Assembly (NCBI GenBank): GCA_002712715.1
Contig: PAUF01000007.1
Span: forward strand, 514,134 to 578,133
DNA length: 64,000 nucleotides
Source of the DNA: Flavobacteriales bacterium
GTDB taxonomy: Bacteria > Bacteroidota > Bacteroidia > Flavobacteriales > BACL11
Direction: 5' to 3'
Of this stretch, positions 25,159-44,317 are shown one piece after another (positions within the stretch are counted from its first letter, which is position 1; every line of letters begins with the position of its first letter). A program made the translations under genes and the position numbers. Below the pieces are notes generated by a model, which had not been told where the DNA came from, searched no databases, and was given only the letters and a program-made list of their open reading frames with translations.

Positions 25159-25167
25159 AACTCCAAA

Positions 25168-25824: not shown

Positions 25825-27411
25825 TTAAAAATCGTAATATTTATTAAACATATCTGACTTAATAGCAAAGAAAGTAAAATTTGTAACTCTAGGACTATAA
25901 CTTTCATGATGAATTTGTGGATTTAAATATCTCAACAAATGACCTATCTCTAATTTCAAGTTAGTTGTAGGATTAATTAAATAAGAAATAGAGAATTTAC
26001 AAGATACAAGTTTGGTATCATTTCCCTGAAACATGTGTATTCCATAATCTGAAGGTCGATTAGAATTTGTCACGAAAATATCATCACCATAATTTGTAGG
26101 GTTGCCAGGAATTTTAGATCCATATCGAGCTCGCATATATTGTGTATTAAAATACCATTTGTTATATTTATAATCTATAAAAACTAATAGCTCATTGAAA
26201 TTAGATCCTAATGGATGAGATAAAGACTCGTAATAATGTCCATAATTTTGACTTACACTGACATGAGAATACATATAAGGTCTAGCATAGTTGTTTTCTA
26301 TTTGTAAGATTAAATTAGATATATTAAAAAGGTCATAATATTTATATCCTAACTGAAAAGAGTATTTATTGCCCCACCATCCATCACCATTTTTTATAGA
26401 TGGTTGTGAAAACTCATCCAGAACAAACTGACCATACGTATTTGAATTTTTATTAATTAAATATTTGAAATTTATTCCCATTAAATAATTATCTGAAGAA
26501 TTTAATGAAAACTCTACAGGTCTTAAGAAAATTATAGGATTTAAATAAGCGATATCAAATCCAGAAAATTCTGGAGTTCTAATATTATCCCAGATTATAG
26601 TTTCATAAAGGCCTAAATTCCATCTATCACCAATATTTATACTTAGATGATGCAGTGTCATATATTTTCGATTATAAGTAATATCTTGAGAAGGGTTAGA
26701 CATCATGTCAATATGTTCCATATATAAATTAGTATACTTAAATTTACCAATAGAGGTAACTAACTTTAAATATGGATAATTAAAAGCATTGTCAGACAAT
26801 ATCATGGATCGATACCCATCGCCAATGAAATTTTTTCCTGTACCAAATTGTACATCAAGATAATTAGACAGCTGTAACGTAAAATTAGCAGAAGACATGC
26901 TATAATCAAAAATTGAATCATTAGTCCAACGAGATTCTCCTTGGCCAGGTATTATCCATGCATTTCTATTAAAAATAAAATTATTAATATAGGTTGGGAA
27001 TCTTGATTGATTTTCAAAAAAACTAGAAGTAAAGATTAATTTATTACCAATTTTACCTTCTAAAAGAAAACCTCTGGTATTATTCCATTTATATTGTTCA
27101 GAACCAAACTCACGATCTATTTCCAAATGAACAATTGGATTAAAAGCAAAATAATATTCATGATTTTTAGATATTAAAAAATTTTCATCCATTAATTTTC
27201 TTTGTAACCAATTTTTATTCATATCAAAATTTGATATGCTATCAATTTGAAAAGAGTATAAAGGTTTTACAGCAGTATGTAAGTCACTTCCTATCTGATT
27301 TCTTTCTTTTTCATTGTGGATGACATAATCTCTATCTAAACTTTGATATAATTTTTGATTAAAAGAATTAAATGAATAGAAAAAAAATATAAGTGCAAAC
27401 AAAAACCTCAC
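25825..27411 (-). CDS. Predicted outer-membrane beta-barrel protein (possibly capsule-assembly Wzi-like)
   Basis: It has a signal peptide, an aromatic-rich alternating sequence and a C-terminal ...KYYDF. A 4-nt overlap links it to the upstream wecA-like gene. The family assignment is tentative. Confidence 0.45.
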   Translation of the reverse strand: MRFLFALIFFFYSFNSFNQKLYQSLDRDYVIHNEKERNQIGSDLHTAVKPLYSFQIDSISNFDMNKNWLQRKLMDENFLISKNHEYYFAFNPIVHLEIDREFGSEQYKWNNTRGFLLEGKIGNKLIFTSSFFENQSRFPTYINNFIFNRNAWIIPGQGESRWTNDSIFDYSMSSANFTLQLSNYLDVQFGTGKNFIGDGYRSMILSDNAFNYPYLKLVTSIGKFKYTNLYMEHIDMMSNPSQDITYNRKYMTLHHLSINIGDRWNLGLYETIIWDNIRTPEFSGFDIAYLNPIIFLRPVEFSLNSSDNYLMGINFKYLINKNSNTYGQFVLDEFSQPSIKNGDGWWGNKYSFQLGYKYYDLFNISNLILQIENNYARPYMYSHVSVSQNYGHYYESLSHPLGSNFNELLVFIDYKYNKWYFNTQYMRARYGSKIPGNPTNYGDDIFVTNSNRPSDYGIHMFQGNDTKLVSCKFSISYLINPTTNLKLEIGHLLRYLNPQIHHESYSPRVTNFTFFAIKSDMFNKYYDF

Positions 27412-28520
27412 TTTCTTGTTTCTCTAATTCTTAATAAAATAAATGGAAATGACATACAGCTTAAGACAAAAGCAGATAAAGCAAAAATAGCTAATGAATG
27501 CTCATATTGAATCAATTGATAAGAAATACAAATAATTACTATGCTAAATATCCATAAAATAATACTTGATGTTCTATGGCCAAATCCTAAATCTAAAAGA
27601 GCATGATGAATATGATTTCTATCAGCATGTAAAGGATTGTATCCAGAAAGGGACCTAATTATAAATATCCTAAAAGTGTCGTATAATGGTACAGCTAAAA
27701 TTGCAATAGCCATAAAAGGACCCCTTTTACCGAAACGACTTTCATTTATCAAATCATCTCCAAAGGGCAAAGCAACTCCTTCGTTAATTAATCTTATTGC
27801 AAAAATAGACAATATCATTCCTACAACAAGTGAGCCTGTATCTCCCATAAAAATAGAAGCTGGATTAAAATTAAATCTCAAAAAAGCTAATAAGGATCCA
27901 ATAACTGCAAAAGATAAAATAGTAAAGCCATAGTCTTGATTTAAAAAAAACAAAAAACCAAAAAAAGCTGAAGATATTACCCCTAGACCTCCAGCAAGAC
28001 CATCAATTCCATCTATTAAATTATATGCATTTGTAATAACAATTACTACAAAAATTGTAAAAAATATTGATAACGACATCGGTAAAGCTTGAATTCCTAA
28101 AACCCCCATCATACTTTTTATTTCCAATCCACCCAAAAAAATAAGTATTAAAACAGCTACAATCTGAGATATTAATTTTTTTATAGGAGTTAAGGAAAGT
28201 AAGTCATCAATTAATCCCGTAAAAAAGATAATTATAATACTAAAAATAATTGCCAATCCTATCTTAAGATCTTGAACAATAATACTTACATCTTCATTCT
28301 CTATCCACAACAATGTCCTCCAAATTAATAACGACATAAGTATACCAACAAAAATACCGGCCCCTCCAAAAATAGGGACTTTTCCTTTATGAGAATGTCT
28401 TCCAGCCTTCGCTGCGTACAACCTTGAATTCTTAGCGAATTGAATAATTTTAGGAATAGCAAAATATGTTATAACAAAGGATGTTAACATTGGAGCAATA
28501 AATATTTTCAAAATCTCCAT
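27408..28520 (-). CDS. Polyprenyl-phosphate HexNAc-1-phosphate transferase (WecA/MraY family, initiating transferase)
   Basis: It has about 10 TM helices and the motifs NAYNLIDGIDGLAGG and FMGDTGS. Confidence 0.8.
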   Translation of the reverse strand: MEILKIFIAPMLTSFVITYFAIPKIIQFAKNSRLYAAKAGRHSHKGKVPIFGGAGIFVGILMSLLIWRTLLWIENEDVSIIVQDLKIGLAIIFSIIIIFFTGLIDDLLSLTPIKKLISQIVAVLILIFLGGLEIKSMMGVLGIQALPMSLSIFFTIFVVIVITNAYNLIDGIDGLAGGLGVISSAFFGFLFFLNQDYGFTILSFAVIGSLLAFLRFNFNPASIFMGDTGSLVVGMILSIFAIRLINEGVALPFGDDLINESRFGKRGPFMAIAILAVPLYDTFRIFIIRSLSGYNPLHADRNHIHHALLDLGFGHRTSSIILWIFSIVIICISYQLIQYEHSLAIFALSAFVLSCMSFPFILLRIRETRK

Positions 28521-28527
28521 TTTTTAT

Positions 28528-29565
28528 CTATTTCTTAAAATGTTTAATATTATTAATATCAGATGCAACCATTTCTTCACAAATATTAGATATTGAAACA
28601 TTAGGACTCCAACCAAGTAGTGATTTTGCTTTGGAATAATCGCCAATCAAAGCATCAACTTCTGCATGCCTAAATAATTTTTTATTTACTCTCACAATTA
28701 TTTTACCTGTATTAACATCTACCCCAACTTCCTCTACTCCCTTTCCTTCCCAAACAACATCAATGTCAACTATTTTAAAAGCCATCTCTGCAAATTGTCT
28801 TACAGTAAACGCCTCCCCTGTGGCTAAAACAAATGTATCTGGTTTATCATTTTGCATCATTCGAAACATTCCTTCTACATACTCGGGAGCGTACCCCCAA
28901 TCTCTACTAGCGTCCAAGTTACCTAATTCTAAATATTCTATTTCACCTTTTAATATTTTTGCAACACCTACAGAAATTTTCCTAGTAACAAATTCCATTC
29001 CTCTTAGAGGGGATTCGTGATTAAAAAGAATTCCACTACATGCAAAAATACCATAAGACTCTCGATAATTTGTTACCATCCAATGAGCATACAGTTTAGA
29101 AATACCATAAGGACTTCTGGGATAAAAAGGTGTAGATTCTTTTTGAGGAAACTCTAACGCTTTTCCATATAACTCTGATGTAGATGCTTGATAGAATTTA
29201 ATTTTCGTATCAACTAATCTTATTGCTTCTAACATATGTGTAACTCCAAGACCCGTAATCATACTAGTAGCAATTGGCTGATCAAATGATACATGTACAA
29301 AGCTTTGGGCGGCTAAATTATAAATCTCATCAGGATTAATACTTTGTACCATGCGAACTGTACTTAAAGGATCTATCAAATCATGCTCAACTAATTGCAA
29401 TCGGTCATGATTATTTATTTTCAAATATTCAATTCTCCAAAAATTCTGAGAACTTGTTCTTCTATACGCTCCATATACCATATATCCCTTATCTAACAAT
29501 AGCTTAGCTAAATAAGCTCCATCCTGTCCGGTAATTCCTGTAATTATTGCTTTTTTCATTATCAA
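28528..29565 (-). CDS. gmd: GDP-mannose 4,6-dehydratase family enzyme (may act on GDP-heptose)
   Basis: It has the blocks [27 protein letters not shown] and [16 protein letters not shown]. The start may be the third codon (MKKAIITG, 29559). Confidence 0.85.
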
Positions 29566-29590
29566 TTATGGTTAAGAATGGTAAAGATAC

Positions 29591-30097
29591 TTATTTTATA
29601 TAAGTAAATAAATTACTCCAGTTTTTTAATGTGAAATTTTCAGATAATTTAATAGATTTAATACCCATAGAGAGTCCCGCTTCAATATCCGAATCTGAAT
29701 CTCCTAATAAATAAGATTTTTTAAAATCAATGTCGGGAAATTCTTGAGCAGCTTGAATTATCATTCCAGGTTTTGGCTTTCTACAATTACATTCGAAATT
29801 TTCTAGATGAGGACAAAAATATATTTTATCAATTTTAACATTATATTTACTCAACTCATCTAACATTTGAGAATGTAAATTTAACAAATCGTTTTCTGTC
29901 ATTAATCCTTTTCCTATACCTTGCTGATTAGTAATGATTATAATTCTTTGAAATTTTTTACTTAAAATTCTCAGAGAGTCAAAAACTCCATCTATAAAAT
30001 TAAACTCTTCATAACTACTAATATAACCTGAAATCTTCTTGTTAATTACTCCGTCTCTATCCAGAAATAGAGTGGAAAACTCAACTTCATGACTCAT
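29591..30097 (-). CDS. gmhB: D-glycero-D-manno-heptose 1,7-bisphosphate phosphatase (HAD)
   Basis: It has the blocks FLDRDGVIN and CxCRKPKPGM. I place the start at ATG 30097 (MSHEV), 1 nt after the gmhA stop. The ORF-track extension to 30142 overlaps gmhA. Confidence 0.8.
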   Translation of the reverse strand: MSHEVEFSTLFLDRDGVINKKISGYISSYEEFNFIDGVFDSLRILSKKFQRIIIITNQQGIGKGLMTENDLLNLHSQMLDELSKYNVKIDKIYFCPHLENFECNCRKPKPGMIIQAAQEFPDIDFKKSYLLGDSDSDIEAGLSMGIKSIKLSENFTLKNWSNLFTYIK

Positions 30098-30098
30098 A

Positions 30099-30671
30099 TT
30101 AAAATAATTTTTTTTCAATAATTTCACATAAAATGTGACCAAATAAAATATGTGACTCCTGAACTCTAGCGGTATTATTTGATGGGGATTTTACTGATAT
30201 ATTACACAAATCACTTAACTTGCTCTTGTCTTTTCCTGTAAAACAAACACTCACAATCCCTAACTTATTTGCCTCAATAACAGCATTTACAATATTCTCT
30301 GAATTTCCTGAAGTTGATATCGCAATCAAAACATCACCTTTCATGCCCATAGCCTTCAACATGCGAGAGTAAACATTTTCGTATCCATAGTCATTAGCAA
30401 CTGCTGTAACATATGAGGAGTTTACATGTAATGCTTCTGCAAATAGTGGTTCTCTATCCATATTAAACCTGCCACTTAACTCCGCAGCGATATGCTGAGC
30501 ATCAGCAGCGCTGCCTCCATTTCCGCATAAGAGCAGCTTATTTCCCCTTTTATATGCATCTATAACACTTTCTACAGATAATTGAAGATTATCTAATATG
30601 TTTTTATCTTCTAATATTAGTGATTTTACACTAATTGAATCATTAATTAATTTTACAATTTGCTCATTCAT
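30099..30671 (-). CDS. gmhA: Phosphoheptose isomerase (SIS domain)
   Basis: It has the blocks CGNGGSAADAQHIAAEL and ISTSGNS and is 190 aa long. Confidence 0.88.
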   Translation of the reverse strand: MNEQIVKLINDSISVKSLILEDKNILDNLQLSVESVIDAYKRGNKLLLCGNGGSAADAQHIAAELSGRFNMDREPLFAEALHVNSSYVTAVANDYGYENVYSRMLKAMGMKGDVLIAISTSGNSENIVNAVIEANKLGIVSVCFTGKDKSKLSDLCNISVKSPSNNTARVQESHILFGHILCEIIEKKLF

Positions 30672-30713
30672 ATTAAATGATATTCAAGTTACATTGCTAA
30701 TATATACATATTA

Positions 30714-31856
30714 TCACAATAAGTTTTTGTATACTTCAGATGTTTTGTGCCCTATAATTTTCCAATCATAATGATTGATAATAAATTCTCTTCCTTTATC
30801 ATTAATCCTAATTAAATCCTCAAAATTCTGGAAAATATGATCTATTTTAGAAGATAAAGAAGAAGGAGATCCATTTTTAAATACATAACCTGTGTCATTG
30901 TCAATAATAACCTCAATTAAGGGTTCTAAATCTGAAACCAATACTGGCTTATTATAACTCATGCTCATCAACAAAACTCCACTTTGATAAATACGAGTAT
31001 ATGGTAAAACTACCAAATCAGCTGCCGAATAATAAAACTTAACATCCTCATGGGAAATGAAATAATTATGAATAATACAATAATCTGATAATTTATTATC
31101 ATTAATTATTTTTTGATAATAAGAAAAATCATCTTTCCAAGCTCTGCCAGCAATGACTAACACAAGATCTTGATTATTCTTAACTACTTCTTTCAATGAT
31201 TTCAACAAAACATCCAAACCTTTATTTTTTTTGATCATTCCAAAAAACAACAACACTTTTTTACTTTCATCAATTCCTATTTTTTTTCTCGAATCGGACT
31301 TATCTACATTTAATTTTACAAAGGGAATATAATTGCCGTGAGGAACTATTTCAACATCGGTTAAATAATAATTTTCTAATAATATTTTTCTAGAAAAACT
31401 ATTATGAGTCAACAACTTATCAGCTCTTTTAAACAACCATTTATTTAATTTTTTATTTGACATTTTATCATCAAAACTAATTACATCATGTATTGTATAA
31501 ACTAATTTCATTGACAAAATTTTCACTAAGAGAAAATCAACTATATTTAATAAATTTGGATGAAAAATATGAAAATGACAAATTTTAGATCCTGAAATCT
31601 TAGCATGAAAAATAGATCTAACTGAACCTATTATATATCTAAAAGCTCTCAATATACGATTATCATTAGAGTAAATTTTATTATAAAATTGATGAAAATT
31701 CAAACCCTTAATTTCTGGATTAGAAGTTATTTCATTAGTATATAAATTTACTTCTACACCAGCATTAATCAAACCGCTTGATTGACCGAACAAGTAATAA
31801 TGATGCGAACTTCCATGAGCACCTAAAGGGTCTATTATTGATACTTTTTGTCTCAT
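30714..31856 (-). CDS. Glycosyltransferase, GT4/GT-B fold
   Basis: At 380 aa, it has a C-terminal GT-B donor-binding region (…SGVLLMSMSYNKPVLVSDLEPLIEVI…). Confidence 0.7.
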   Translation of the reverse strand: MRQKVSIIDPLGAHGSSHHYYLFGQSSGLINAGVEVNLYTNEITSNPEIKGLNFHQFYNKIYSNDNRILRAFRYIIGSVRSIFHAKISGSKICHFHIFHPNLLNIVDFLLVKILSMKLVYTIHDVISFDDKMSNKKLNKWLFKRADKLLTHNSFSRKILLENYYLTDVEIVPHGNYIPFVKLNVDKSDSRKKIGIDESKKVLLFFGMIKKNKGLDVLLKSLKEVVKNNQDLVLVIAGRAWKDDFSYYQKIINDNKLSDYCIIHNYFISHEDVKFYYSAADLVVLPYTRIYQSGVLLMSMSYNKPVLVSDLEPLIEVIIDNDTGYVFKNGSPSSLSSKIDHIFQNFEDLIRINDKGREFIINHYDWKIIGHKTSEVYKNLL

Positions 31857-31857
31857 A

Positions 31858-32766
31858 TTATAATTTTAATCCTTCAAAAAAGGATTTATTAATTAATTTC
31901 CAAGTACTGAAGTTTTTCTGAATATCAATTCTGATAAAAAACTTTAAATTATTCTTAAAAAATAAATAACTAATATATAGGTAAGAGTAAAAAGTACCTA
32001 CTTTTTTTAAAAAATATACATGATTTCGAGTATTCTGTTTAATAAAAAAATCTCCCCTAAAATTTTTATTATTTATGGATTTAAATGATTTAGTAAGTCC
32101 TCCTACTTTATGAAAAAACAACACGTCTGAGAAATAAAAAAGCTTATGTTTTTTATGCTTATAAACTCTATATAAAAAATCAGTATCGTCAAAATAAACA
32201 AAATACTTTTCATCCATATAACCAATATCATGAAAAACAGTATCCTTAATTAACAAACAGCATGTAGGCGCATACTGAGTTTGAAAAATACCATCATACA
32301 ATTGACTATCAGGCTTGCGATTTCCAAAATGGATAGGCAATAATCCTTTAGATTTCACAAAATTACTTCCTGCATACCAAATAATCGAATTATCATCATG
32401 ATATAATATTTTTGGGGCTACCATTGAACAATTATTATTATATTGAATCTCAACCATTTTTTTTATTAAATCATGCTCACATTTAATATCATTGTTAAGT
32501 AATAAAACATTACTACAGTAATCCTCAAGCGCTGCTTTTATTCCTATATTATTTGCTTTAGCTACTCCATAATTAATATTATTACATATTAATTTTACAC
32601 GATTATCTTTCTTTTTTTTTATTAGGCCAATAGTGTTATCTTGAGAGTTATTATCAATAATGTATATATTAAAATTATCATATGACTGATTCAAGATTGA
32701 GTCAAAAAAATCTTCTAAAAATTTCTCAGAATTATATGTAACAGTTACAATACCTATTTTTTCCAC
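31858..32766 (-). CDS. Glycosyltransferase family 2
   Basis: It has the blocks IGIVTVTYNSEKFL and IIDNNSQDNT and a GT-A fold. Confidence 0.8.
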   Translation of the reverse strand: MEKIGIVTVTYNSEKFLEDFFDSILNQSYDNFNIYIIDNNSQDNTIGLIKKKKDNRVKLICNNINYGVAKANNIGIKAALEDYCSNVLLLNNDIKCEHDLIKKMVEIQYNNNCSMVAPKILYHDDNSIIWYAGSNFVKSKGLLPIHFGNRKPDSQLYDGIFQTQYAPTCCLLIKDTVFHDIGYMDEKYFVYFDDTDFLYRVYKHKKHKLFYFSDVLFFHKVGGLTKSFKSINNKNFRGDFFIKQNTRNHVYFLKKVGTFYSYLYISYLFFKNNLKFFIRIDIQKNFSTWKLINKSFFEGLKL

Positions 32767-33611
32767 AGTATTAGATTCTTATTCATAGCTTTCTCAAGCT
32801 TTTCTATATCATTAATATAATACTTAATTATCTTTTTTCTTAACTTATTACACAATATAGGCTTTTTAGAATCTGAAAAAAGATTTTTTTTCACAATGCT
32901 TGTAAATTTTACTGGAAGAATATTTTTCAACAACCTTCTCAAGAAAATCATTGAATATACTTTTCTGATAATTTTATTTTTGGGCAGACTAAAAGCATTG
33001 TGTTTTGTTTGAAGAATTGTATTTTTTTTAATATTAACAGACAAAAATTTATACGTTTTTTGTAATTCTTTTGTTCCAAATTCTACAAAATCTTCATACC
33101 AAATAATCTGAATTCTATCTTTATCAAAATTACTTAAGTATCTCATAACTTGCTCATAATAATTACCTATTTCAAAATACTGTTGAAAAAACAAGCTATC
33201 ACTTTTATTAAATATAGATTCAAAATCTTGATCTACCAAACCTAATTTATAATCCATTAAATAATGAGAAAAAGCTCTATCTACTGGGTTTCTTAGCATA
33301 ATTATAATCTTAGCATTTGTATTATATTGCTTGATTTTTTTTGCTACTAAAGGGTAAAACAAATAAGAAACAGAAGCCTCTCCTCTAATTTGACAATTTG
33401 AATCATCAAACAAATCATGATAATCCTCGATGTTTTCTATGGGATTTTTTCCATAATATAGAGGGTTTTTTAACAATTCATCTTTTGTGAAAAAATCAGG
33501 TTCTTTTATAGCGCTCATGCAAATTACTGAATGTTGTTTTAAATATTCATATAGAGAAGTTGTACCTGCCTTAGGAGCTCCAACAATAAAAAAATCAACT
33601 ATTTTCCGCAT
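32754..33611 (-). CDS. PAPS-dependent sulfotransferase (Sulfotransfer_1-like), copy 1
   Basis: It has the 5'-PSB loop VGAPKAGTTS and the 3'-PB block LRNPVDRAFSHY. Its start overlaps the 3' end of the upstream GH-A-like gene... no: its 3' end overlaps the start of the downstream GT2 gene by 13 nt. Confidence 0.8.
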   Translation of the reverse strand: MRKIVDFFIVGAPKAGTTSLYEYLKQHSVICMSAIKEPDFFTKDELLKNPLYYGKNPIENIEDYHDLFDDSNCQIRGEASVSYLFYPLVAKKIKQYNTNAKIIIMLRNPVDRAFSHYLMDYKLGLVDQDFESIFNKSDSLFFQQYFEIGNYYEQVMRYLSNFDKDRIQIIWYEDFVEFGTKELQKTYKFLSVNIKKNTILQTKHNAFSLPKNKIIRKVYSMIFLRRLLKNILPVKFTSIVKKNLFSDSKKPILCNKLRKKIIKYYINDIEKLEKAMNKNLILWKK

Positions 33612-33627
33612 ACAATATGTATTATAA

Positions 33628-36233: not shown

Positions 36234-36237
36234 ATGA

Positions 36238-37551
36238 TTATTTTGTAAATCTACTAAAAAAGGAAATCATTCCTGAAATAATGAATATTAGAAAAAATGG
36301 TCTAAATAATACTGGCTCAAAAAAAACTGAAATTATTATAATGAAGAGAAATAATTTTTTTCTTTCTGTAAATAAAGTTTGATTTAATAAAAAATAAAAG
36401 AAAATAAAAAATACAGGGAAACCCATAGTAGCCATCATTCCAGTAAGAGAATTAGTACTTCCTTTATCTGAAAATTCTGGCTTAAGTTTAAAACTTGTTA
36501 TATTCTCTACAAATTCAAGAGCATTTCTGCAGCTTCCTTTCATTGTATAACCCTTTCGAAATTCTCTAAATGCAACTAAATCTAAACCAACTCCGGAAAG
36601 TGGGTAGTCAGATGCAATACATGGACATTGTATTAAATCAAACATTCTTTTCTGAAATGAACTTTCTTCATTACCTACCGCTTTATTAAGGACATTAGGA
36701 ATAATAATATTTTTTCCTATATAATAAGCCGAAACAATTAGAGATGCTGATATTAAAATTACAATTAAAGGGTTTCTACGAACAATATTTTGATAAATAG
36801 AATCCATGTAGAGCGATAGAATTAATACTACCATTATAATGAAACCAGATGTTGAAAAAGTGGTAAATATTGAGAAAATAATCAAAAGTATTATCCATTT
36901 TTTTTTCTGTTTAAACACAAAACCTTCAAGAAAAAGTAAAATATTCAAATATATTTGATTTATACCTGGTTCCCAAAACCATCCTTGGTTCCTCACCAAA
37001 TCTATACCAAAAAATGTATACTCATGTTTAAGATCATAAAAAAACAAATAATTAAAATGCTGGACAGTATGAGAAGGAATAATCCATTTAGGTAAATTAG
37101 ATAAATATGAATTTCCAACAACGATTCCCAAAATGAAAGTTATTAAAGAAATAATTAAAATTATTCTCAAAACAGTTCTCAAATATACAAGGAACTTATC
37201 TATACCTATATTATTAAATATATGGATGCAAATTAAAACACACGTCATAATATTTAACAAGTAGAAACCATATTTTATCGCTTCCTGCGGTAAAGGACCT
37301 GCAAGTAAATAATTATATAAAATAATTATATAGGTAAAAATTAAAGTAACTATCGAAGCGCTAAATACAACTCTCTTCAAAGGTTTTTTATATAATAACA
37401 ATGTTAATAATGATACAGCACATAATAATAAATAAGCTGGTTTCTTAAAATAAACGAAAAATATACCTCCTCCACTCAAAGTTAATAGCAAGAATAAAAA
37501 TATATTTAATTTGTTATATATCGAACTCAGTCTCATATTTTTTGATGCCAA
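36238..37551 (-). CDS. wzy: Polytopic membrane protein, O-antigen/repeat-unit polymerase (Wzy)-like
   Basis: It has 10 or more hydrophobic segments and a large loop, and sits between sulfotransferase and epimerase genes in a Wzx locus. Confidence 0.55.
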   Translation of the reverse strand: MASKNMRLSSIYNKLNIFLFLLLTLSGGGIFFVYFKKPAYLLLCAVSLLTLLLYKKPLKRVVFSASIVTLIFTYIIILYNYLLAGPLPQEAIKYGFYLLNIMTCVLICIHIFNNIGIDKFLVYLRTVLRIILIISLITFILGIVVGNSYLSNLPKWIIPSHTVQHFNYLFFYDLKHEYTFFGIDLVRNQGWFWEPGINQIYLNILLFLEGFVFKQKKKWIILLIIFSIFTTFSTSGFIIMVVLILSLYMDSIYQNIVRRNPLIVILISASLIVSAYYIGKNIIIPNVLNKAVGNEESSFQKRMFDLIQCPCIASDYPLSGVGLDLVAFREFRKGYTMKGSCRNALEFVENITSFKLKPEFSDKGSTNSLTGMMATMGFPVFFIFFYFLLNQTLFTERKKLFLFIIIISVFFEPVLFRPFFLIFIISGMISFFSRFTK

Positions 37552-38435
37552 TCAAATTGTTTTTTTACCAACTTTTCAAATTTAAATATATCGTTTTTAA
37601 AATATTTCATATACATTGATTTTTTTATTTTTTCAGGCAATTCATCATAAATAAATGGTTTCGTATTAAGTGATTGAATTCTATTTCTAATAATCTGTCG
37701 ATATTTTAATGATGGGATTAGCGTTTTAACAACGTTATTCCACCATCCTTTTTTATTTAATACTTTTTTAAGAAACTTCATTCTAGATTTACTAGAAGGA
37801 TTACTTAAGTGATCTAAATTAAAATCAAAAGATTCTAAACCCATAAATAATATTAAATTATCTATTGTTTCCTTTCTGTTATTAATAAAATCAGCTTCAA
37901 AATCTATAATGAAAAAATTTTCCAAAGAAAAGTACTCTAAATATCTCTCCATCATCAATCCATATAGACTCTGGTTATAATATGAATGACGAAGCGATGA
38001 TATATTATTATTGTTAATACTATATTGATATAATCTTGTATCCTCCTCAGCAATAGCCTGTAAGAAGGTTAATGGTTCTTCTTCATCTCTTTTGGAATGC
38101 AAATAATGTGAATAAGCGCGATCTATAGGATCTCTCAATATTAAAACAAACTTCATATCTCCGCCAAAAGCATTGAAAATTCTTCTTGGCGCTTTACTAC
38201 AAAAAAAATACGACGGAGTATAATCAACACTTATTTTTTGATTAACATCTTTATAATATGTAGACTCATACCAGGATAAACCCTTTTCATAATTTTCATC
38301 AATATCAAAAAAATGTGGTTCTTTAAAAGAGGGAGAATAAATATTTGGATGCTGCCTTAAAATATTAAACAGACTAGTAGTACCACTTTTAGCGGCTCCA
38401 ACACACATTATATTTGGACAATTTAACTTAACCAA
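37533..38435 (-). CDS. PAPS-dependent sulfotransferase, copy 2
   Basis: It has the blocks VGAAKSGTTS, KEPHFF and LRDPIDRAYSHY. Confidence 0.8.
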   Translation of the reverse strand: MVKLNCPNIMCVGAAKSGTTSLFNILRQHPNIYSPSFKEPHFFDIDENYEKGLSWYESTYYKDVNQKISVDYTPSYFFCSKAPRRIFNAFGGDMKFVLILRDPIDRAYSHYLHSKRDEEEPLTFLQAIAEEDTRLYQYSINNNNISSLRHSYYNQSLYGLMMERYLEYFSLENFFIIDFEADFINNRKETIDNLILFMGLESFDFNLDHLSNPSSKSRMKFLKKVLNKKGWWNNVVKTLIPSLKYRQIIRNRIQSLNTKPFIYDELPEKIKKSMYMKYFKNDIFKFEKLVKKQFDWHQKI

Positions 38436-39325
38436 TGTTGTAAATCTTTTTTCAAAAATTTTGAAAGTTTTAAAATATCTTTTTCATAATAATCTTTCAA
38501 AACTTTTCTTTCTATATATGACATTTCAGATGTTTTAAAACTGTATGAATCAACTAATCTATTACGTATCAATTTTCTTAATTTTTTAAAGGGAATAACA
38601 AATTTGAAGAATTGTTTTAACTTATTTTTACTAACTAATAAATTTTTAACATAATTATTTGTCCAATTCCACCCACCAACCATATATTTATTTTCTTGAT
38701 CTACTAATATAGAAGAAATTCCTAAAAAACAAAAAATGGAATCCATCTCATTCTGAGAATTATGTTTAAAATCTTCAAAAAAAACTATCTTAACATTATC
38801 AAATTCTTCTCTATATTTCTTTACCTGTTCATAATACATCCCCAAAGTTTTATACCTACTTGCAGGAGTCATTAAATTATCTTGTAAATACCTTTCCTCG
38901 CATACATTCCAAGCGCTCAAAAAATTTTCATTGGTTTCTTTAACATTATACCTTCTTACATGATGATATCCAGAATAAGCTCTATCAATTGGGTTTCTCA
39001 ATGCTATAATTATTTTGACATCATCTCCAAAATGATATTTTATTTTGGGAATCACTATTTCAGGATACATTAAATACATTACTGATGATTCTCCTCTATA
39101 AGTTAATGACTTTCCTTTATAAAACAAATCATAATATTCTTCTGAATTAATAACTCCTGAAGGTATTCGATTTACTCCTATCTCTTTATTAATTAAAAAA
39201 TGTGGTTCCTTTGGGGTGCACATATGAATTTCAGGGTGTTGATTTAAATAATTATGAATAGAAGTAGTTCCACTTTTTGCAGCGCCTACTATAAATAAAT
39301 TGGGACTAACTAATTCTCTATCCAT
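38423..39325 (-). CDS. PAPS-dependent sulfotransferase, copy 3
   Basis: It has the blocks VGAAKSGTTS, KEPHFL and LRNPIDRAYSGY. Confidence 0.8.
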   Translation of the reverse strand: MDRELVSPNLFIVGAAKSGTTSIHNYLNQHPEIHMCTPKEPHFLINKEIGVNRIPSGVINSEEYYDLFYKGKSLTYRGESSVMYLMYPEIVIPKIKYHFGDDVKIIIALRNPIDRAYSGYHHVRRYNVKETNENFLSAWNVCEERYLQDNLMTPASRYKTLGMYYEQVKKYREEFDNVKIVFFEDFKHNSQNEMDSIFCFLGISSILVDQENKYMVGGWNWTNNYVKNLLVSKNKLKQFFKFVIPFKKLRKLIRNRLVDSYSFKTSEMSYIERKVLKDYYEKDILKLSKFLKKDLQHWLS

Positions 39326-40221
39326 TTTGACAAATCTTTTTTTAACAAATTACCCAATTTCATTACATCATCCTTATAAAATTGCTTTAGTTTGGCTCTT
39401 GTTTCTAAATTCATATCATCTACCTTTTTCTTAGAAAAATTTTCTAAATTTTTTCTGATATTTTTTCTTGAATTAGAGTTAAATAGACTCTTAGAAGTTC
39501 TTCTAATTAAATTATCTCTCATAAATATTTTTTTAACAAAATCATTCTTCCATTGCAAACCCCCTACATTATGTTTTACGGAAAAATCAATTTTTTGGTT
39601 AGGGTATACTTCTAAAAAATCAAATGTTTTCTTTAACTCAAACTCTGTATTATCTTTAAAGTCATCATGAAAAATTATATGAATATTTTCAAATTCATTT
39701 TTATAATAGTTAACCATTTTATAATAAAGGCCCATATCTTGATACATTACCATTGGAGTAAGCTGCTGATCACGCTCCAATCTATCTTTTTCTAACATTA
39801 AAGCTTCTTCAAAAGAAAATGATTCCTTTAACCCCCTAGATACATGAACATATGCCGAATATGCACGATCCACTGGATTTCTCAGCATAATTATAATCTT
39901 CACATCTGATCCTAAGTATTTCTTGATGTTATTAATAGCATGCTCATAATAATATAAGTATAATACGGTGGATTCTCCTACAGCTTTGAAATCACTTGAA
40001 GATTTAAATAAGTTCTTATACTCATTCCAATCCCAAACTCCACTATGTATTCTTTTTTTCACAAGATCTTTAATAAAAAACCTTGGCTCTTTCACTTTTA
40101 AACCATTTTCAGTATATGAAGGTAAGAAAATATCATTATGCTGATTAAGATAATTATGTAAAGATGAAGTCCCACTTTTTGCAGCTCCTACAATTAAAAA
40201 ATTTGGTAATTTTAAATTCAT
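39310..40221 (-). CDS. PAPS-dependent sulfotransferase, copy 4
   Basis: It has the blocks VGAAKSGTSS, KEPRFF and LRNPVDRAYSAY. Confidence 0.8.
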   Translation of the reverse strand: MNLKLPNFLIVGAAKSGTSSLHNYLNQHNDIFLPSYTENGLKVKEPRFFIKDLVKKRIHSGVWDWNEYKNLFKSSSDFKAVGESTVLYLYYYEHAINNIKKYLGSDVKIIIMLRNPVDRAYSAYVHVSRGLKESFSFEEALMLEKDRLERDQQLTPMVMYQDMGLYYKMVNYYKNEFENIHIIFHDDFKDNTEFELKKTFDFLEVYPNQKIDFSVKHNVGGLQWKNDFVKKIFMRDNLIRRTSKSLFNSNSRKNIRKNLENFSKKKVDDMNLETRAKLKQFYKDDVMKLGNLLKKDLSKWIEN

Positions 40222-41603
40222 AATCTTATAAAAGGTAAATAAAATGTAAAAAATCCGAATTTCTTCTTAATAAAAAGAACCATAGTTAGATTCCAAAAGA
40301 TCAAACTAGACATTGTTGCGATAGCGGCTCCTAATATCCCATACTTTGGAATTAATATAAAATTTAAACCTATATTTAATATTGCCCCAAGAGACAAGAT
40401 GATAAAATAAATATTTTGATTACCAGTCATTTGAAGTATATTTCCTACAGATCCTGAAATTGAACTAACAAACCTTCCTATTGATAACAGTATAAAAGCG
40501 CTAACTCCGTATTGAGCGAATTGTGGACCAAATAATCCTAAAATAAACTCAGGGAACATAAAAAAAATAATTAATAATGGTAATGTAGTCCAGAAAATCA
40601 ATTTGGTTGATTGAAATGACACCTTTTTTAATCCCTGTAAATCATTTCTACTATACATTTCTGCAAATTTTGGTGCTGCAATACTATTTATTGCCATTAA
40701 AGAAATAGCGGCAAACATAGACAGTCGAAAAGCAGCATGGTATATACCCACTTCTGTTTTCGTATCAGCGACAAGACCATCAACAACGTTTGGAGATTTT
40801 ATAGCGCCTAACATCAACTTATCTGTCCATGACATTATGAATTGAGCAGACTGAGCAAACATTAATGGAATGGATATTTTAATAATTGTTGAATCGTTAA
40901 TTTTTTCTACTAATGAATCATAAGAAATATTTTTATAAATAGCATATCTCATAGAGAAAAACGAAAGAATAGAGACAATAAGTATACTTATTAAAAACGC
41001 ATATAATGGAACGTTATACTGATGAGCATCTTCTATTAAAAAAAATTCATGAATTATATAGAGAATAATTAATGTAAACAAAGTAATAGAAACTCGAAAA
41101 AAAAAGGAAAACATAGCAATTTTCTTCAGTCCTCTTAAACTCTGATAATGGAGTACAAACAAAGACATCGGGGTAACAAAAAAAGCTAGTAATTGTAAAA
41201 TTGAAGAATCAATATTCACAATTTCAGAAATTTGATGAGATAAAAAATACATCAGGAATGAACTCAATATAGAAGAAATGGTAATTATTTGAATCATTTG
41301 GCTATTTAGCTTAAGTATACTATACCATCTTTTCTTTGTAGCAAATGAAGAGAAAAAACGAATTGCTGTAGTATCTATGCCTAATTTTCCAAAAACAACA
41401 AAAATTTTTAAAACTGTTATAGCAAGAACATATTCTCCAAGACTATCAGCACCATATTTACGAGCTATAAAAAAAGTCAATAAATAGCCTATAGCTAAAC
41501 CTGTTATTCTTAAAATAAATGATATTGAGCTTCCCCTAAATATTTCATTGAAGTCAGAGTCTCTTAGCAAACCATTTATTTTATTCTTAATATTTGAAAT
41601 CAT
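40218..41603 (-). CDS. wzx: Polysaccharide repeat-unit flippase (Wzx, MOP superfamily)
   Basis: The 461-aa protein has about 12 TM segments and a typical polysaccharide-biosynthesis-protein layout. Confidence 0.7.
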   Translation of the reverse strand: MISNIKNKINGLLRDSDFNEIFRGSSISFILRITGLAIGYLLTFFIARKYGADSLGEYVLAITVLKIFVVFGKLGIDTTAIRFFSSFATKKRWYSILKLNSQMIQIITISSILSSFLMYFLSHQISEIVNIDSSILQLLAFFVTPMSLFVLHYQSLRGLKKIAMFSFFFRVSITLFTLIILYIIHEFFLIEDAHQYNVPLYAFLISILIVSILSFFSMRYAIYKNISYDSLVEKINDSTIIKISIPLMFAQSAQFIMSWTDKLMLGAIKSPNVVDGLVADTKTEVGIYHAAFRLSMFAAISLMAINSIAAPKFAEMYSRNDLQGLKKVSFQSTKLIFWTTLPLLIIFFMFPEFILGLFGPQFAQYGVSAFILLSIGRFVSSISGSVGNILQMTGNQNIYFIILSLGAILNIGLNFILIPKYGILGAAIATMSSLIFWNLTMVLFIKKKFGFFTFYLPFIRL

Positions 41604-41610
41604 CTATATG

Positions 41611-42444
41611 CTATTCTACCAAAAACCATGGGTTTAAAAGATTTTTCTTGTTATAATTTAACTCTTGTTCAGAATTATACTTACAAACTTTGAATCCAGC
41701 AAATTTAACAATAGCATGCCCTGAAGCAGTGTCCCACTCCATAGTTGGAGCATATCTAGGATAAGCATCAGCATTGCCTTCAGCAACCATACATAACTTT
41801 AAAGAAGATCCTACACTTAGAATATCAATTTTATTATGCGTTTTTTTCTTTTGCTGAAAAAAATGTTCAGTTTCATTAGACATATGAGAACGAGAACCAA
41901 CTATTGTATAAGTTTCTCTAGTATTTTTTGCCGGTAATTTTTTAGCATTAGACATAAGCTGGTTAAAATTTTTAATTGTATGCATAATTTTAGTTTTCTT
42001 ATATGAACCCAAATCTGACATACCAAAATATAATTCTTGCTTTACAGGAACATATATAACCCCAAGTACAGGAGTGTCATTATGTATTAAAGCAATATTT
42101 ACAGTAAATTCGCCATTTCTTTTAACAAATTCTTTTGTCCCATCAAGAGGATCCACAAGCCAAAAGAAGGTCCAATCTTTTCTTTTTTCATAAGAGATCT
42201 TAGATCCTTCCTCACTTAAAATTGGAAGGTTAGTATCTCTTAACATTTTCTCAATTATATCATTACAATTTCTATCAGCCATTGTCAAGGGAGAATTATC
42301 TTTTTTGGTCTCAACAATAAAATCAGAAGCGTATACATCCATTATTTCCTTGCCTCCACTAAGAGCAGCATTTACCGATGTAATTAATAAAGATTGTGAT
42401 ACAGACTGAAATTCTAAATCGTGAATACTATTCTTGTTTTTCAT
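41611..42444 (-). CDS. cysQ: 3'(2'),5'-bisphosphate nucleotidase (PAP phosphatase, inositol-monophosphatase fold)
   Basis: It has the blocks ILSEE and WLVDPLDGTKEF. Its context is cysC and the sulfotransferases. Confidence 0.8.
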   Translation of the reverse strand: MKNKNSIHDLEFQSVSQSLLITSVNAALSGGKEIMDVYASDFIVETKKDNSPLTMADRNCNDIIEKMLRDTNLPILSEEGSKISYEKRKDWTFFWLVDPLDGTKEFVKRNGEFTVNIALIHNDTPVLGVIYVPVKQELYFGMSDLGSYKKTKIMHTIKNFNQLMSNAKKLPAKNTRETYTIVGSRSHMSNETEHFFQQKKKTHNKIDILSVGSSLKLCMVAEGNADAYPRYAPTMEWDTASGHAIVKFAGFKVCKYNSEQELNYNKKNLLNPWFLVE

Positions 42445-43151
42445 TGGTTTTCATTTAAAATTTGGAAAGCTTTGGAAGTTCCTATTCTGGAAGCTCCAGC
42501 ATCAATTAAACATTTACATTGCTCTATATTTTCGATACCTCCTGAGGCTTTAATTTCAAGCCCACTAATTGAAGATTTTATTAGTTTAACATGATATTCT
42601 TTTGCACCGAATCCACCATAATAGCCAGTGCATGTTTTAATATATACATTCCTCACAAAAGGTTGGAAATATTTATTAACTAAATAACTTATTCTAGAAG
42701 AAATTCCTGCAATTTGATTATCACTAAGAGCTGGAGTTTCTATAATCCACTTAACCGGAATATTTTTCTCATATCCAATCCTGGTTCCTTCAATAATAAC
42801 AATGTCAAACTTGTCAAAATTTTTATCCTTGTATGATCTGTAATCTGCGACATAATCCAATTCATCTGCTCCCATAGAAATCGCTTCTAAAGCGTCTTTA
42901 ACAACATTTTTTATTGGATCATTACCTTTTGGGAAATTAATCACAGTACCTAGAATAACATTTTTCTTTGAATGATCAATAATCTTTTTAGCTAAAGTGA
43001 GGTGATTAGAACGGATCATAACAGCCAAGAAGTTATTGTTAATAGCTTCAGTAACTAAATCAATTACCTTTAGTCTATTTTCCTCAGGCGTCAAACAAGC
43101 TTCTTTAGGAAGTTTAAGATAAGTAGATTCTAAATATCTGTCAATTCTCAT
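42441..43151 (-). CDS. Deoxyribose-phosphate aldolase (DeoC) family class-I aldolase
   Basis: It has the Schiff-base Lys block YIKTCTGY and the block IKASGGI...AGASRIGTS. A 4-nt overlap couples it to cysQ. Confidence 0.65.
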   Translation of the reverse strand: MRIDRYLESTYLKLPKEACLTPEENRLKVIDLVTEAINNNFLAVMIRSNHLTLAKKIIDHSKKNVILGTVINFPKGNDPIKNVVKDALEAISMGADELDYVADYRSYKDKNFDKFDIVIIEGTRIGYEKNIPVKWIIETPALSDNQIAGISSRISYLVNKYFQPFVRNVYIKTCTGYYGGFGAKEYHVKLIKSSISGLEIKASGGIENIEQCKCLIDAGASRIGTSKAFQILNENQ

Positions 43152-43173
43152 TTACAATATACATGATTTTGAG

Positions 43174-43181
43174 CAAATCTA
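43174..43181 (-). promoter_or_regulatory. -7 promoter box (TAGATTTG on the minus strand)
   Basis: The plus strand reads CAAATCTA, 23 nt upstream of ATG 43151. Confidence 0.4.
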
Positions 43182-43213
43182 GTAATTTTAAAGGAATTTA
43201 TTAAAAGAGTCTA

Positions 43214-43687
43214 TTATAAAACGATGCTACTATCAGAAAGATACTTCTCAACATCAGACTGAATAGATTCATCTACTAGTTCTCTCCATTCATGATTTCC
43301 TTCTTTAATAGAGTCCCTTATTTTAGTTGCAGAAATCCAACCAATATTTGGTGGGGGTGTAAACTCATTAATCTCATACCCTACACCTCTACCAAAATTA
43401 ACACTCTCGATATCAGGTATTATAATAACTTTAACGTCATGACCATGTGCTTCATGATATTTCTGTATCATCGCAACTGTTTGTTCAGTTGTGAAAGGAT
43501 TCTTAGCATCTGGATCAATATCTCTAACCATTATAAGCGCAGGGATTCCATCATTGATTTTTTGCATAATTAATGAAATATGCCCTTGATGATAAGGTTG
43601 AAATCTACCTACAAATATCGAATATTTTTTACTTTCATTACTAGTAGGTTCTCCACCATGATTAATTACGTCCCACTTTTTTTCCAT
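43214..43687 (-). CDS. Small HxGH nucleotidyltransferase (cytidylyltransferase-like superfamily, NMNAT-like)
   Basis: It has the motifs FVGRFQPYHQGH and ISATKIRD and is 157 aa long. The substrate is unknown. Confidence 0.6.
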   Translation of the reverse strand: MEKKWDVINHGGEPTSNESKKYSIFVGRFQPYHQGHISLIMQKINDGIPALIMVRDIDPDAKNPFTTEQTVAMIQKYHEAHGHDVKVIIIPDIESVNFGRGVGYEINEFTPPPNIGWISATKIRDSIKEGNHEWRELVDESIQSDVEKYLSDSSIVL

Positions 43688-43693
43688 AATTTC

Positions 43694-44290
43694 TTATTTT
43701 ATAATATTATTTTCTTTTAAATAATCGACAACTATTTGAGCACATTCGTCAATACCTTGTTGATCAGTTCTAATAGATAATTCTGGATTAGTGGGTACTT
43801 CATATGGAGCATCAATACCTGTAAAACCTTTAATTTCTCCGGATCTTGCTTTTTTATATAATCCTTTAGGGTCTCTGCTTTCACATACATCAAGAGGAGT
43901 ATCAACAAACACTTCAACAAAGTCTTCTCCTATAACTTTTCGGGCAGATTCTCGATCTTCAAGATAAGGAGAAATAAATGCTGTAAGAACTAAAATACCA
44001 GCGTCAGCAAACAAATTGGATACTTCAGTAATTCTTCGTATATTTTCAGTTCTATCTTCTGGAGAAAAACCTAAATCTTTATTCAATCCCATTCTAACAT
44101 TATCTCCATCTAATATATAAGTATGAATTCCCATATCATGTAATAATTTTTCTGTCGCATTAGCGATAGTAGATTTACCAGATCCTGATAAACCTGTAAA
44201 CCAAATTACACGAGATTGATGTAGGTTTTTTTTCTCTTTTAAATCTCTTGGAACACGATGTTTATGAAAATATAAATTATCTGCACTCAT
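43694..44290 (-). CDS. cysC: Adenylyl-sulfate (APS) kinase
   Basis: It has the P-loop [11 protein letters not shown] and the block [17 protein letters not shown]. Confidence 0.92.
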
Positions 44291-44309
44291 AAATTTAATT
44301 TTAGGATTG

Positions 44310-44317
44310 CAAATCTA
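44310..44317 (-). promoter_or_regulatory. -7 promoter box (TAGATTTG on the minus strand) ahead of cysC and the glycan locus
   Basis: The plus strand reads CAAATCTA, 20 nt upstream of ATG 44290. Confidence 0.45.

Follow-up and report, generated by a model that had tools for sequence, protein, structure and literature searches.

A conserved Wzx/Wzy-type locus that probably makes a multiply sulfated surface polysaccharide in uncultured marine Flavobacteriales

Amongst the closest described systems for the synthesis of a sulfated bacterial polysaccharide is the synechan (xss) cluster of Synechocystis sp. PCC 6803, in which Wzx/Wzy-type machinery, glycosyltransferases and the sulfotransferases xssA and xssE give rise to the sulfated product (PMC13125312). 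In Vibrio sp. KMM 8419 (PMC11641403) and Cobetia marina KMM 1449 (PMC11766843) the genes for the synthesis of 3'-phosphoadenosine 5'-phosphosulfate (PAPS) are found together with sulfotransferases inside a polysaccharide cluster, a combination that the authors propose as a hallmark of sulfated polysaccharide synthesis. A further published precedent exists in the sulfated exopolymers of Pontiella. Within the phylum Bacteroidota, PAPS genes immediately adjoin a sulfotransferase in Bacteroides thetaiotaomicron (Bt_0411-Bt_0416), where the acceptor is cholesterol (PMC9417993). The locus considered here comes from a marine member of the same phylum, a Flavobacteriales bacterium (assembly GCA_002712715.1), and occupies positions 25825-44290, on the minus strand, of a 64,000-nucleotide stretch of contig PAUF01000007.1 (514,134 to 578,133). 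This whole stretch is referred to as the window, and all coordinates are given within it.

Read from its gene content and order, the locus probably directs the synthesis of a multiply sulfated, Wzx/Wzy-dependent surface polysaccharide, which a clade of uncultured marine Flavobacteriales would share as a conserved trait. Such a design is in itself known and widespread. The original prediction for this stretch had described loci for sulfated polymers as rarely described, which holds for the literature but not for genomes, as a scan with a sulfotransferase alignment against one genome per GTDB species returns at least 580 relatives in many phyla, and several of the loci read combine Wzx with CysC-CysDN. 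Loci with the order CysQ-CysC-CysDN-Wzx-sulfotransferase were found in our own scan in Formosa sp. 4Alg 33, Cryomorphaceae, Acidobacteria and elsewhere. Those of Formosa and the Cryomorphaceae share the head of the present locus (cysQ, cysC, wzx and a heparan-sulfate-type sulfotransferase), but they contain the canonical CysDN, either one sulfotransferase (Formosa and locus L062) or five (Cryomorphaceae L050 and L059), and different downstream genes without the glycoside hydrolase discussed below. The Formosa locus (L077; NZ_CP174605.1, ~1.225-1.246 Mb) reads CysQ-x-CysC-CysD-CysN-Wzx-sulfotransferase, followed by further unassigned open reading frames (ORFs), and this cultured marine organism could serve as a model in which to study experimentally how Flavobacteriia make sulfated glycans.

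The other described systems differ more deeply. The synechan cluster is cyanobacterial, plasmid-borne and controlled by XssQ/R/S, with the supply of PAPS treated as a matter of host sulfur assimilation (PMC13125312), whereas the present locus carries cysC, cysQ, a small nucleotidyltransferase termed NT157, four paralogous heparan-sulfate-type sulfotransferases and a hydrolase of the glycoside hydrolase clan A (GH-A) type, and is conserved throughout its clade. Vibrio sp. KMM 8419 and Cobetia belong to the Gammaproteobacteria, and the Vibrio capsule cluster is strain-specific, has a canonical cysNDC and uses a Kps ABC transporter for export. The Bacteroides genes, although from the same phylum, comprise one sulfotransferase and no glycan-assembly genes. 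What is distinct here is therefore the conservation of the locus across the clade, with most members carrying it at the same chromosomal position, the four conserved sulfotransferase lineages with a probably short repeat unit, an apparently new GH-A-fold family and a cysC-NT157 cassette in place of cysDN. In public annotation of a Flavobacteriales bacterium metagenome-assembled genome (MAG), NT157, the GH-A-fold protein and the first of the sulfotransferases are all labelled ‘hypothetical’.

The four sulfotransferases are ST1 (39310..40221), ST2 (38423..39325), ST3 (37533..38435) and ST4 (32754..33611), all encoded, as is the rest of the locus, on the minus strand. Gene families were assigned by Pfam and NCBIfam profile searches against curated cut-offs, and all four proteins lie above that of Sulfotransfer_1 (44-72 bits versus 22; ST2 57, ST3 62.9 and ST4 71.6), with ST1 assigned by Sulfotransfer_1/_3. 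ST2-ST4 share 30-43% identity with ST1. When aligned, the motifs VGAxKxGTxS and LR[ND]PxDRA[YF]S are invariant in the four sequences, so that the PAPS 5'-phosphosulfate loop and the 3'-phosphate block are indeed kept in each, as originally proposed. A third motif, KEPxF (K44-E45-P46-x-F48), is likewise invariant, and its glutamate is presumably equivalent to the catalytic base of the heparan sulfate N-deacetylase/N-sulfotransferase (NDST) and 3-O-sulfotransferase (3-OST). With their motifs intact and their scores above the family cut-off, all four are apparently competent PAPS-dependent enzymes. None of them contains a hydrophobic segment, in comparison with the 10-11 found in WecA, Wzx and Wzy, and they are therefore taken to be cytoplasmic. 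In most relatives a separate counterpart exists for each paralogue, commonly 44-60% identical to it, with the ST2 orthologues of sister loci at 36-55%; there is no gene at the position of ST3 in L012-L014, L016 and L017.

The nearest solved structure to ST1 is 3rnl (E 3e-38), followed by heparan sulfate NDST and 3-OST (1nst and 1t8t; E 1e-7 to 2e-3). Because ST1 matches these heparan sulfate N- and 3-O-sulfotransferase families, a carbohydrate acceptor fits, and the four enzymes would transfer sulfate to a sugar in the NDST/3-OST manner. It is conceivable, but very improbable, that the acceptor is instead a lipid, a sterol-like molecule or a small metabolite. Acceptor specificity cannot be read from a sequence, and in the Bacteroidota a cholesterol sulfotransferase is known to accompany a PAPS cluster (PMC9417993). 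However, the sulfotransferase genes of the present locus are interleaved with wzx, wzy, glycosyltransferase and hydrolase genes through stop/start overlaps, an arrangement kept in ~20 species, and the nearest characterised relatives of the enzymes act on carbohydrate.

The assembly machinery begins with a WecA/MraY-family initiating polyprenyl-phosphate N-acetylhexosamine (HexNAc)-1-phosphate transferase (27408..28520; PF00953 E 8e-41) with ~11 hydrophobic segments, orthologues of which (45-49% identity) close the locus in L011, L013, L014, L016 and L021. Two glycosyltransferases follow, of the GT2 (31858..32766; PF00535 E 6e-25, orthologues 39-56%) and GT4 (30714..31856; PF00534 E 7e-27, together with PF13439) types. 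The flippase gene wzx (40218..41603) encodes a protein with ~10 hydrophobic segments that matches PF01943 (Polysacc_synt; 33.7 bits versus a cut-off of 28.2) and MatE. The polymerase is probably represented by a Wzy-like protein (36238..37551), also with ~10 predicted hydrophobic segments, whose orthologues (31-42% identity) occupy the same position in sister loci and show similarly weak Wzy_C matches. The original description of a Wzx/Wzy-type glycan locus is supported by these assignments, here in a marine member of the Flavobacteriales. From the single initiating enzyme and two glycosyltransferases, we infer a repeat unit of about three sugars, which with this many sulfotransferases would carry a high charge density.

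The same gene order, CysQ-Wzx-ST1-ST2-(ST3)-Wzy-SDR-GH493-ST4-GT2-GT4-GmhA-GmhB-WecA (SDR being a short-chain dehydrogenase/reductase and GH493 the 493-residue GH-A-fold protein), is found in ~20 GTDB species at 30-66% amino acid identity. The best 24 loci come from MAGs of marine Flavobacteriales and other Bacteroidota, including four Chitinophagales. The locus proteins recur, again in the same order, in Tara Oceans and other independent marine assemblies, and since the order is repeated both there and in the ~20 other species the cluster is not a product of chance. In all relatives with a visible upstream flank, other than L011 and L017, the locus is preceded by GcvH and TonB. What varies is limited: ST3 is absent in some species, and others have gained an extra gene that, from reading the sequences, is Sulfotransfer_3-like or hexapeptide acetyltransferase-like. 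Since the locus is syntenic in ~20 species and only the decoration genes vary, it looks like the determinant of a conserved lineage glycan with tunable substitution, unlike the hypervariable O-antigen loci. The four Chitinophagales loci (L020, L023, L026 and L028) have four to six sulfotransferase genes around Wzx and are without Wzy, the SDR and GH493.

This degree of conservation also bears on what the polymer is for. It could be a lineage-wide anionic glycan of the ‘common antigen’ type, possibly an anchor for type IX secretion cargo in the way of the Porphyromonas A-LPS, an identity that we regard as unlikely. A-LPS and the enterobacterial common antigen provide the analogies. The backbone genes are conserved whilst only the decoration genes (the extra sulfotransferase and the acetyltransferase) change, the place beside SprA-GcvH-TonB is kept in most loci with a visible upstream flank, and the window is rich in type IX cargo bearing Por_Secre_tail domains. 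Against this, the adjacency to sprA may be plain synteny, as gcvH and a tonB-like gene lie in between, and no ligase, PorU/PorZ-type or Wzz gene was found in the window. On the content of the window, the multiply sulfated polysaccharide may end up as an O-antigen, a capsule or a surface-protein anchor.

The supply of PAPS appears to be encoded at the head of the locus. CysC (43694..44290; 198 aa) is an adenylyl-sulfate (APS) kinase that matches PF01583 (E 2e-71) and scores well above the curated cut-offs of NF003013 (289 bits versus 163) and TIGR00455 (277 versus 139). CysQ (41611..42444) is a 3'(2'),5'-bisphosphate nucleotidase, or PAP phosphatase (PAP being 3'-phosphoadenosine 5'-phosphate), which passes TIGR01331 (261.6 bits versus 228.8), matches PF00459 (E 4e-49) and has orthologues of 52-66% identity directly upstream of wzx in L007-L030. 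The claim of dedicated APS kinase and PAP phosphatase genes is therefore sound, but that of a PAPS module belonging to the locus holds only for these two steps, as no canonical ATP sulfurylase, either CysD, CysN or Sat (PF01747), is present among the window ORFs scanned against Pfam. In its place, directly after cysC, lies the gene for NT157 (43214..43687; 157 aa), an HxGH nucleotidyltransferase resembling nicotinamide mononucleotide (NMN) adenylyltransferase (NMNAT) and matching CTP_transf_like (PF01467; 27.6 bits versus a cut-off of 21). The original prediction had listed this protein without a role; the family stands, and its partner appears to be the APS kinase and not the heptose genes of the locus.

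The relationship between NT157 and the missing sulfurylase becomes apparent on comparison with sister loci. Nine of these have a divergent cysC-cysD-cysN operon at the head of the locus, whose products of 301 and 422 aa are taken to be CysD and CysN, whereas in the window and in L008, L011, L012, L013, L027 and L086-L090 cysC is followed by NT157 and cysDN is absent. The clearest pair is L011 and L017, where the orthologous flanking genes are 54-75% identical and the difference is exactly cysC-NT157 (L011) against cysC-cysD-cysN (L017). The CysC of the window shares 67-77% identity with its counterparts in sister loci that carry NT157, but only 50-56% with the cysDN-linked form. When the window is set against L231, L192 and L007-L030, the cassette also proves much better conserved between sister species (67-84% identity) than its surroundings (30-66%), and copies on viral contigs are 64% (CysC) and 75.5% (NT157) identical to those of the window. 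Since the cassette is closer to these viral copies than to the cysDN-linked CysC, it appears to be shared with viruses, and the pattern of identities suggests an exchange between the two.

An exhaustive search returned 1069 representatives of the NT157 family. Amongst the best 150 of these, 39 are fused to APS kinase, 26 in the order APS kinase-NT and 13 as NT-APS kinase, and Pfam confirms the fusion in eight of ten representatives tested. The NT-APS kinase architecture occurs in at least 120 clusters, in which any name given is only ‘adenylyl-sulfate kinase’, and the named fusions come from Omnitrophota and one Woesearchaeota archaeon. In Omnitrophota such a fusion adjoins two sulfotransferases. 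A metagenome scan with an alignment of eight NT157-family sequences, from which 80 loci were read (L095-L174), found APS kinase in 51 of the 80, mostly directly adjacent, with CysD in none and a CysN-like protein in one. In IMG/VR, where at least 592 stretches match and 80 loci were again read (L175-L254), APS kinase is fused to NT or within two genes of it in 74, and CysD, CysN and CysQ are found in none. Around the pair in these viral loci lie genes for glycan modification, and Sulfotransfer_1, _2 and _3 belong to the families met most often. Viral contigs of 30-500 kb very commonly carry the pair, in some cases as a fusion, and its company suggests an auxiliary module for sulfation that has gone unrecognised in viruses. 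A PHROGs scan of the genes near the metagenomic pairs was nearly empty, and it is the IMG/VR scan that establishes viral origin. Two proteins of the family (P0247 and P0294) have long Cys-rich N-terminal regions that resemble HNH/homing-endonuclease modules, which may be merged gene calls in viral genomes.

Given that NT157 stands in the place of cysDN, that its family is fused to APS kinase in either order and that it keeps the neighbourhoods described above, its most economical reading is that of a sulfate adenylyltransferase, an assignment that remains tentative and falls somewhat short of an even chance. Adenylyl transfer from ATP to an oxyanion is a chemistry common to NMNAT, phosphopantetheine adenylyltransferase (PPAT) and ATP sulfurylase. 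Held with the same reserve, NT157 could represent a third and minimal class of ATP sulfurylase, in which an NMNAT-derived domain of ~130 aa contributes to a two-gene or fused PAPS synthase; the cassette, again at not quite even confidence, would have replaced cysDN in this clade and would be found also in Omnitrophota, at least one Woesearchaeota and widespread marine viruses. In the literature searches, nothing was found on an NT157-type nucleotidyltransferase as a sulfate-activating enzyme. The bifunctional PAPS synthases, such as human PAPSS1 (PDB 2qjf), likewise couple an HxxH nucleotidyltransferase-fold domain to an APS kinase, but the NT157 domain measures ~130 aa, is without the PUA-like domain and, from its sequence, is not detectably PF01747. 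As a family assignment, a divergent Sat is rejected: NT157 gives no PF01747 match, its family profile meets the PAPSS1 sulfurylase domain only at E 0.21, and hhalign of the family against a bacterial Sat (from L056) aligns 18 columns covering the HxxH motif alone, with a probability of 0.75%.

The nearest solved relatives of NT157 are instead an archaeal NMNAT (MJ0541, PDB 1f9a; E 7e-16) and then PPAT (~1e-6). NT157 may accordingly not activate sulfate at all, and could be an NMN or other adenylyltransferase that travels with cysC, APS being made by CysDN or Sat elsewhere in the genome; we consider this a rather doubtful but by no means negligible alternative. NT157 shares with the archaeal, NadM-type enzyme MJ0541 the motif GRFQPxHxGH, which we take to be the NMNAT form, as well as NPFT and the C-terminal (I/Y)S(A/G)TxIR, and in three relatives (L018, L019 and L024) the site holds neither cysC nor NT157. 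Nevertheless, NT157 falls below every NCBIfam NMNAT cut-off, and by a large distance (NF002243 50 bits versus 127; TIGR01527 43 versus 181), and it is without ~25 residues that precede the last motif in MJ0541. The family has motifs of its own, VRD..PD..NP[FY]T and IPDIESVN[YF]GR.VGY, and within the latter N[YF]GR.VGY, with a nearly invariant Arg, replaces the segment FNSIWVSY of MJ0541, which presumably holds the NMN-pocket residues. Moreover, the genomic partner is an APS kinase, and an enzyme of NAD synthesis would hardly be expected to change places with cysDN in situ, to be fused to that kinase in two independent orders and to accompany it almost without exception on viral contigs.

A different possibility, and a highly improbable one, is that the CysC-like kinase and NT157 together make some other 3'-phospho-nucleotide donor, in which case part of the decoration would not be sulfate. 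The Campylobacter CysC homologue Cj1415 works on the phosphoramidate donor of the capsule in the O-methyl phosphoramidate (MeOPN) pathway, and the logic of a nucleotidyltransferase followed by a 3'-kinase is common to that pathway and to PPAT with dephospho-CoA kinase. Some fusions also occur amongst sugar genes with no sulfotransferase within 8 kb, as on two huge-phage-like contigs of 394 and 219 kb (L093 and L094), where the NT-APS kinase fusion lies amongst nonulosonic-acid and other sugar genes, a topoisomerase, an HNH protein and a methylase. Yet the kinase of the window passes the curated APS-kinase cut-offs by a wide margin and is adjoined by CysQ and four sulfotransferases with PAPS loops, of the neighbours that can be recognised in the viral loci sulfotransferases are amongst the commonest, and no glutamine kinase is present in the locus, the only amidohydrolase-type genes lying at least 10 kb outside it.

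Several observations weigh against the locus as the source of a multiply sulfated surface polysaccharide. The organism is uncultured, and the product is a prediction from its genes. The Wzy_C score of the putative polymerase (28.3 bits) sits under the Pfam cut-off of 31.7. Amongst the large ORFs of the window scanned with Pfam there is no Wza, Wzc, Wzz or O-antigen ligase, hence no chain-length regulator, export pair or ligase, and the absence of Wza/Wzc agrees with what had been reported before; such genes may be encoded outside the window. The closest relatives of NT157 are NMN adenylyltransferases and not ATP sulfurylases, and its AlphaFold2 (AF2) model, built from a shallow alignment, has a predicted local distance difference test (pLDDT) score of 50, too low for a fold search or for inspection of a binding site. 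CysDN or Sat may be encoded elsewhere in the 591-kb contig or the genome, and the three loci that carry neither CysC nor NT157 at the site imply that PAPS can come from elsewhere. Finally, the co-directional minus-strand run extends past both ends of the locus, on the upstream side through a TonB-like gene, GcvH and SprA and on the downstream side to TsaB, so that gene orientation cannot delimit an operon. A promoter/terminator consensus scan of 25000-44999, with a consensus that does not cover Bacteroidota promoters, gave counts equal to the shuffled expectation and is therefore uninformative on operon structure.

The precursor genes give a partial picture of the sugars. The SDR (35106..36233) matches Epimerase (E 1e-46) in two stretches, 4-135 and ~173-352, and carries an insertion of ~40 aa, and its nearest solved structures are 6wjb/6wj9 (E 4e-36), the UDP-glucose 4-epimerase 4zrm, WbgU and WbpP. 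The earlier description of an epimerase/reductase can thus be narrowed to its epimerase side, closest to the UDP-GlcNAc/UDP-hexose 4-epimerases. The GmhA-family sedoheptulose-7-phosphate isomerase (30099..30671) has a strong family match (E 4e-55) and its best solved matches are phosphoheptose isomerases (E 4e-45), but it falls below the cut-offs of NF010546 (187 bits versus 276) and TIGR00441 (180 versus 209). The GmhB-family HAD-IIIA phosphatase (29591..30142) is similarly below that of NF006506 (156.5 bits versus 178); in public annotation its gene encodes 168 aa, with a start just past the end of gmhA. No heptose-7-phosphate kinase (HddA/HldA), nor any GHMP or PfkB kinase, and no heptose-1-phosphate nucleotidyltransferase (HddC/HldC) was found in the locus or the scanned window ORFs. 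The prediction of a heptose-containing glycan is consequently carried by the GmhA- and GmhB-like genes, below equivalog level, and not by the kinase and nucleotidyltransferase steps. NT157 was considered for the latter and rejected, since it is missing from loci that keep GmhA/GmhB (L007, L016-L019 and L024) and follows the APS kinase.

The remaining precursor gene, gmd (28528..29565), encodes an accessory GDP-mannose 4,6-dehydratase (TIGR01472 454.6 bits versus 415; 2z1m E 5e-127). Amongst the relatives it occurs only in L021, followed there by an ORF for a 288-aa SDR-like protein, and the present locus has no reductase partner for it. A role as GDP-heptose dehydratase was rejected, as the strong matches are all to ordinary GDP-mannose dehydratases and most orthologous loci are without gmd. 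On these gene matches, heptose and a 6-deoxyhexose are possible components of the glycan.

The locus also encodes a protein of 493 aa (GH493; 33628..35109) that belongs to no Pfam or NCBIfam family above cut-off, the nearest being Glyco_hydro_cc at 17 bits versus 21. It has 296 homologues, and the few that are named are hypothetical proteins of Flavobacteriales MAGs. The AF2 model (pLDDT 80, predicted template modelling score (pTM) 0.85) consists of a (beta/alpha)8 barrel and a beta-sandwich, for which Foldseek returns GH51, GH79 (beta-glucuronidase and heparanase) and GH30 enzymes (E 1e-13 to 1e-9, template modelling (TM) score 0.45-0.6, probability 1.00). Across 28 sequences of the family E160, E164 (in ‘ELGSE’) and E298 (in ‘TEWN’) are invariant; the former motif is likened to the acid/base ‘ELGNE’ of GH79 and the latter is taken to hold the nucleophile. 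Both of the predicted catalytic glutamates (E164 and E298) would thus be kept, with strands 4 and 7 as their placement from the motifs. The fold model and conserved glutamates, together with a signal-like hydrophobic segment at residues 1-26, bear out the prediction of a secreted GH-A-like hydrolase. The protein shares the barrel and beta-sandwich with GH79 heparanase/beta-glucuronidase and GH51 arabinofuranosidase, but at 11-15% identity and a TM score of ~0.55-0.6, with no CAZy or Pfam family match, and on the modelled structure it is a new GH-A-fold family. Hydrolases of this kind, such as the periplasmic PslG, occur in other exopolysaccharide loci, and by analogy the 493-aa protein would most obviously act in the periplasm or at the cell surface, where it would trim the polymer or release it.

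Taken together, these components allow a pathway to be proposed. NT157 would adenylylate sulfate in the cytoplasm, ATP and sulfate giving APS and pyrophosphate (PPi), and CysC would phosphorylate the 3'-OH to form PAPS. A repeat unit of about three sugars would be assembled on undecaprenyl phosphate, starting with HexNAc-1-phosphate, from precursors tuned by the UDP-sugar 4-epimerase-like SDR, Gmd and the GmhA/GmhB-like pair. Each of the four sulfotransferases would then sulfate a defined position on the lipid-linked unit, an event placed ahead of flipping because PAPS is cytoplasmic, whilst CysQ would clear PAP, the inhibitory by-product. Wzx would flip the decorated unit and Wzy polymerise it, after which the GH-A enzyme may trim or release the polymer outside the cytoplasm.

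Research on marine Flavobacteriia treats them as consumers of the sulfated polysaccharides of algae, and a conserved, clade-wide pathway for the synthesis of a densely sulfated glycan would make them producers too. Such production would matter for dissolved organic matter in the sea, for the stickiness of particles, for phage adsorption and for sulfur cycling. Loci that keep one backbone but differ in sulfation and acetylation form a natural series for the study of sulfotransferase specificity, which could be useful in glycosaminoglycan-like biomanufacturing. If NT157 does activate sulfate, sulfur-assimilation and PAPS pathways will have been under-called in genomes apparently without an ATP sulfurylase, a compact two-domain PAPS synthase would become available for engineering, and a common but unrecognised viral auxiliary metabolic module would gain a function, through which viruses could drive the sulfation of host or viral glycans.

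The locus as a whole comprises 19 tightly packed ORFs; the original prediction had given 18, although its own gene list already held 19 items. Its statement that most junctions overlap or are short is accurate, since all but one overlap or measure 45 nt or less, and the sole longer junction, of 62 nt, separates NT157 from deoC (42441..43151). The latter encodes a short-form deoxyribose-phosphate aldolase that passes TIGR00126 (130.4 bits versus 117.3) and scores only 19 bits with Pfam DeoC. A DeoC gene lies just upstream of cysQ in every relative whose locus reaches that far (including L008-L014 and L087-L089), either as a short form of 236 aa or as a long form of ~300 aa followed by two aldehyde dehydrogenase genes. 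Despite this fixed place within the sulfation module it is probably a passenger with no evident role in the glycan, and a function as a sugar-pathway enzyme was rejected in view of the match to the DeoC equivalog model and the accompanying aldehyde dehydrogenases. The aldolase family named in the original prediction is therefore right, but a glycan role is not evident. At the opposite end, a 528-aa protein (25825..27411) overlaps wecA by 4 nt and is a candidate member of the locus; this protein, earlier called an ‘OM barrel’, has no match in Pfam, NCBIfam or PDB and no similarity to the DUF6029 outer-membrane protein encoded elsewhere in the window.

Beyond the locus, a type IX secretion neighbourhood occupies 17402-23325 and 45485-56011 of the window, with SprA (2375 aa) and five Por_Secre_tail proteins, including a PLD-like nuclease/phospholipase with fn3, a lamin-tail-domain protein and an Omp28-domain protein. 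The presence of SprA and of several Por_Secre_tail proteins confirms that the host belongs to the Bacteroidota and has a type IX secretion system. A further sizeable ORF of 429 aa, without a Pfam match, is located at 62643-63932 on the minus strand. On the plus strand, an outer-membrane-type cluster at 56614-60758 encodes DUF6029 (550 aa), Omp28-like, DUF6588 and small beta-barrel proteins, and a kynurenine-pathway-like run at 378-7240 encodes an aldehyde dehydrogenase, an Amidohydro_2 protein, a formamidase-like cyclase, a kynureninase and an FAD monooxygenase, which may serve either the breakdown of tryptophan or the de novo synthesis of NAD.

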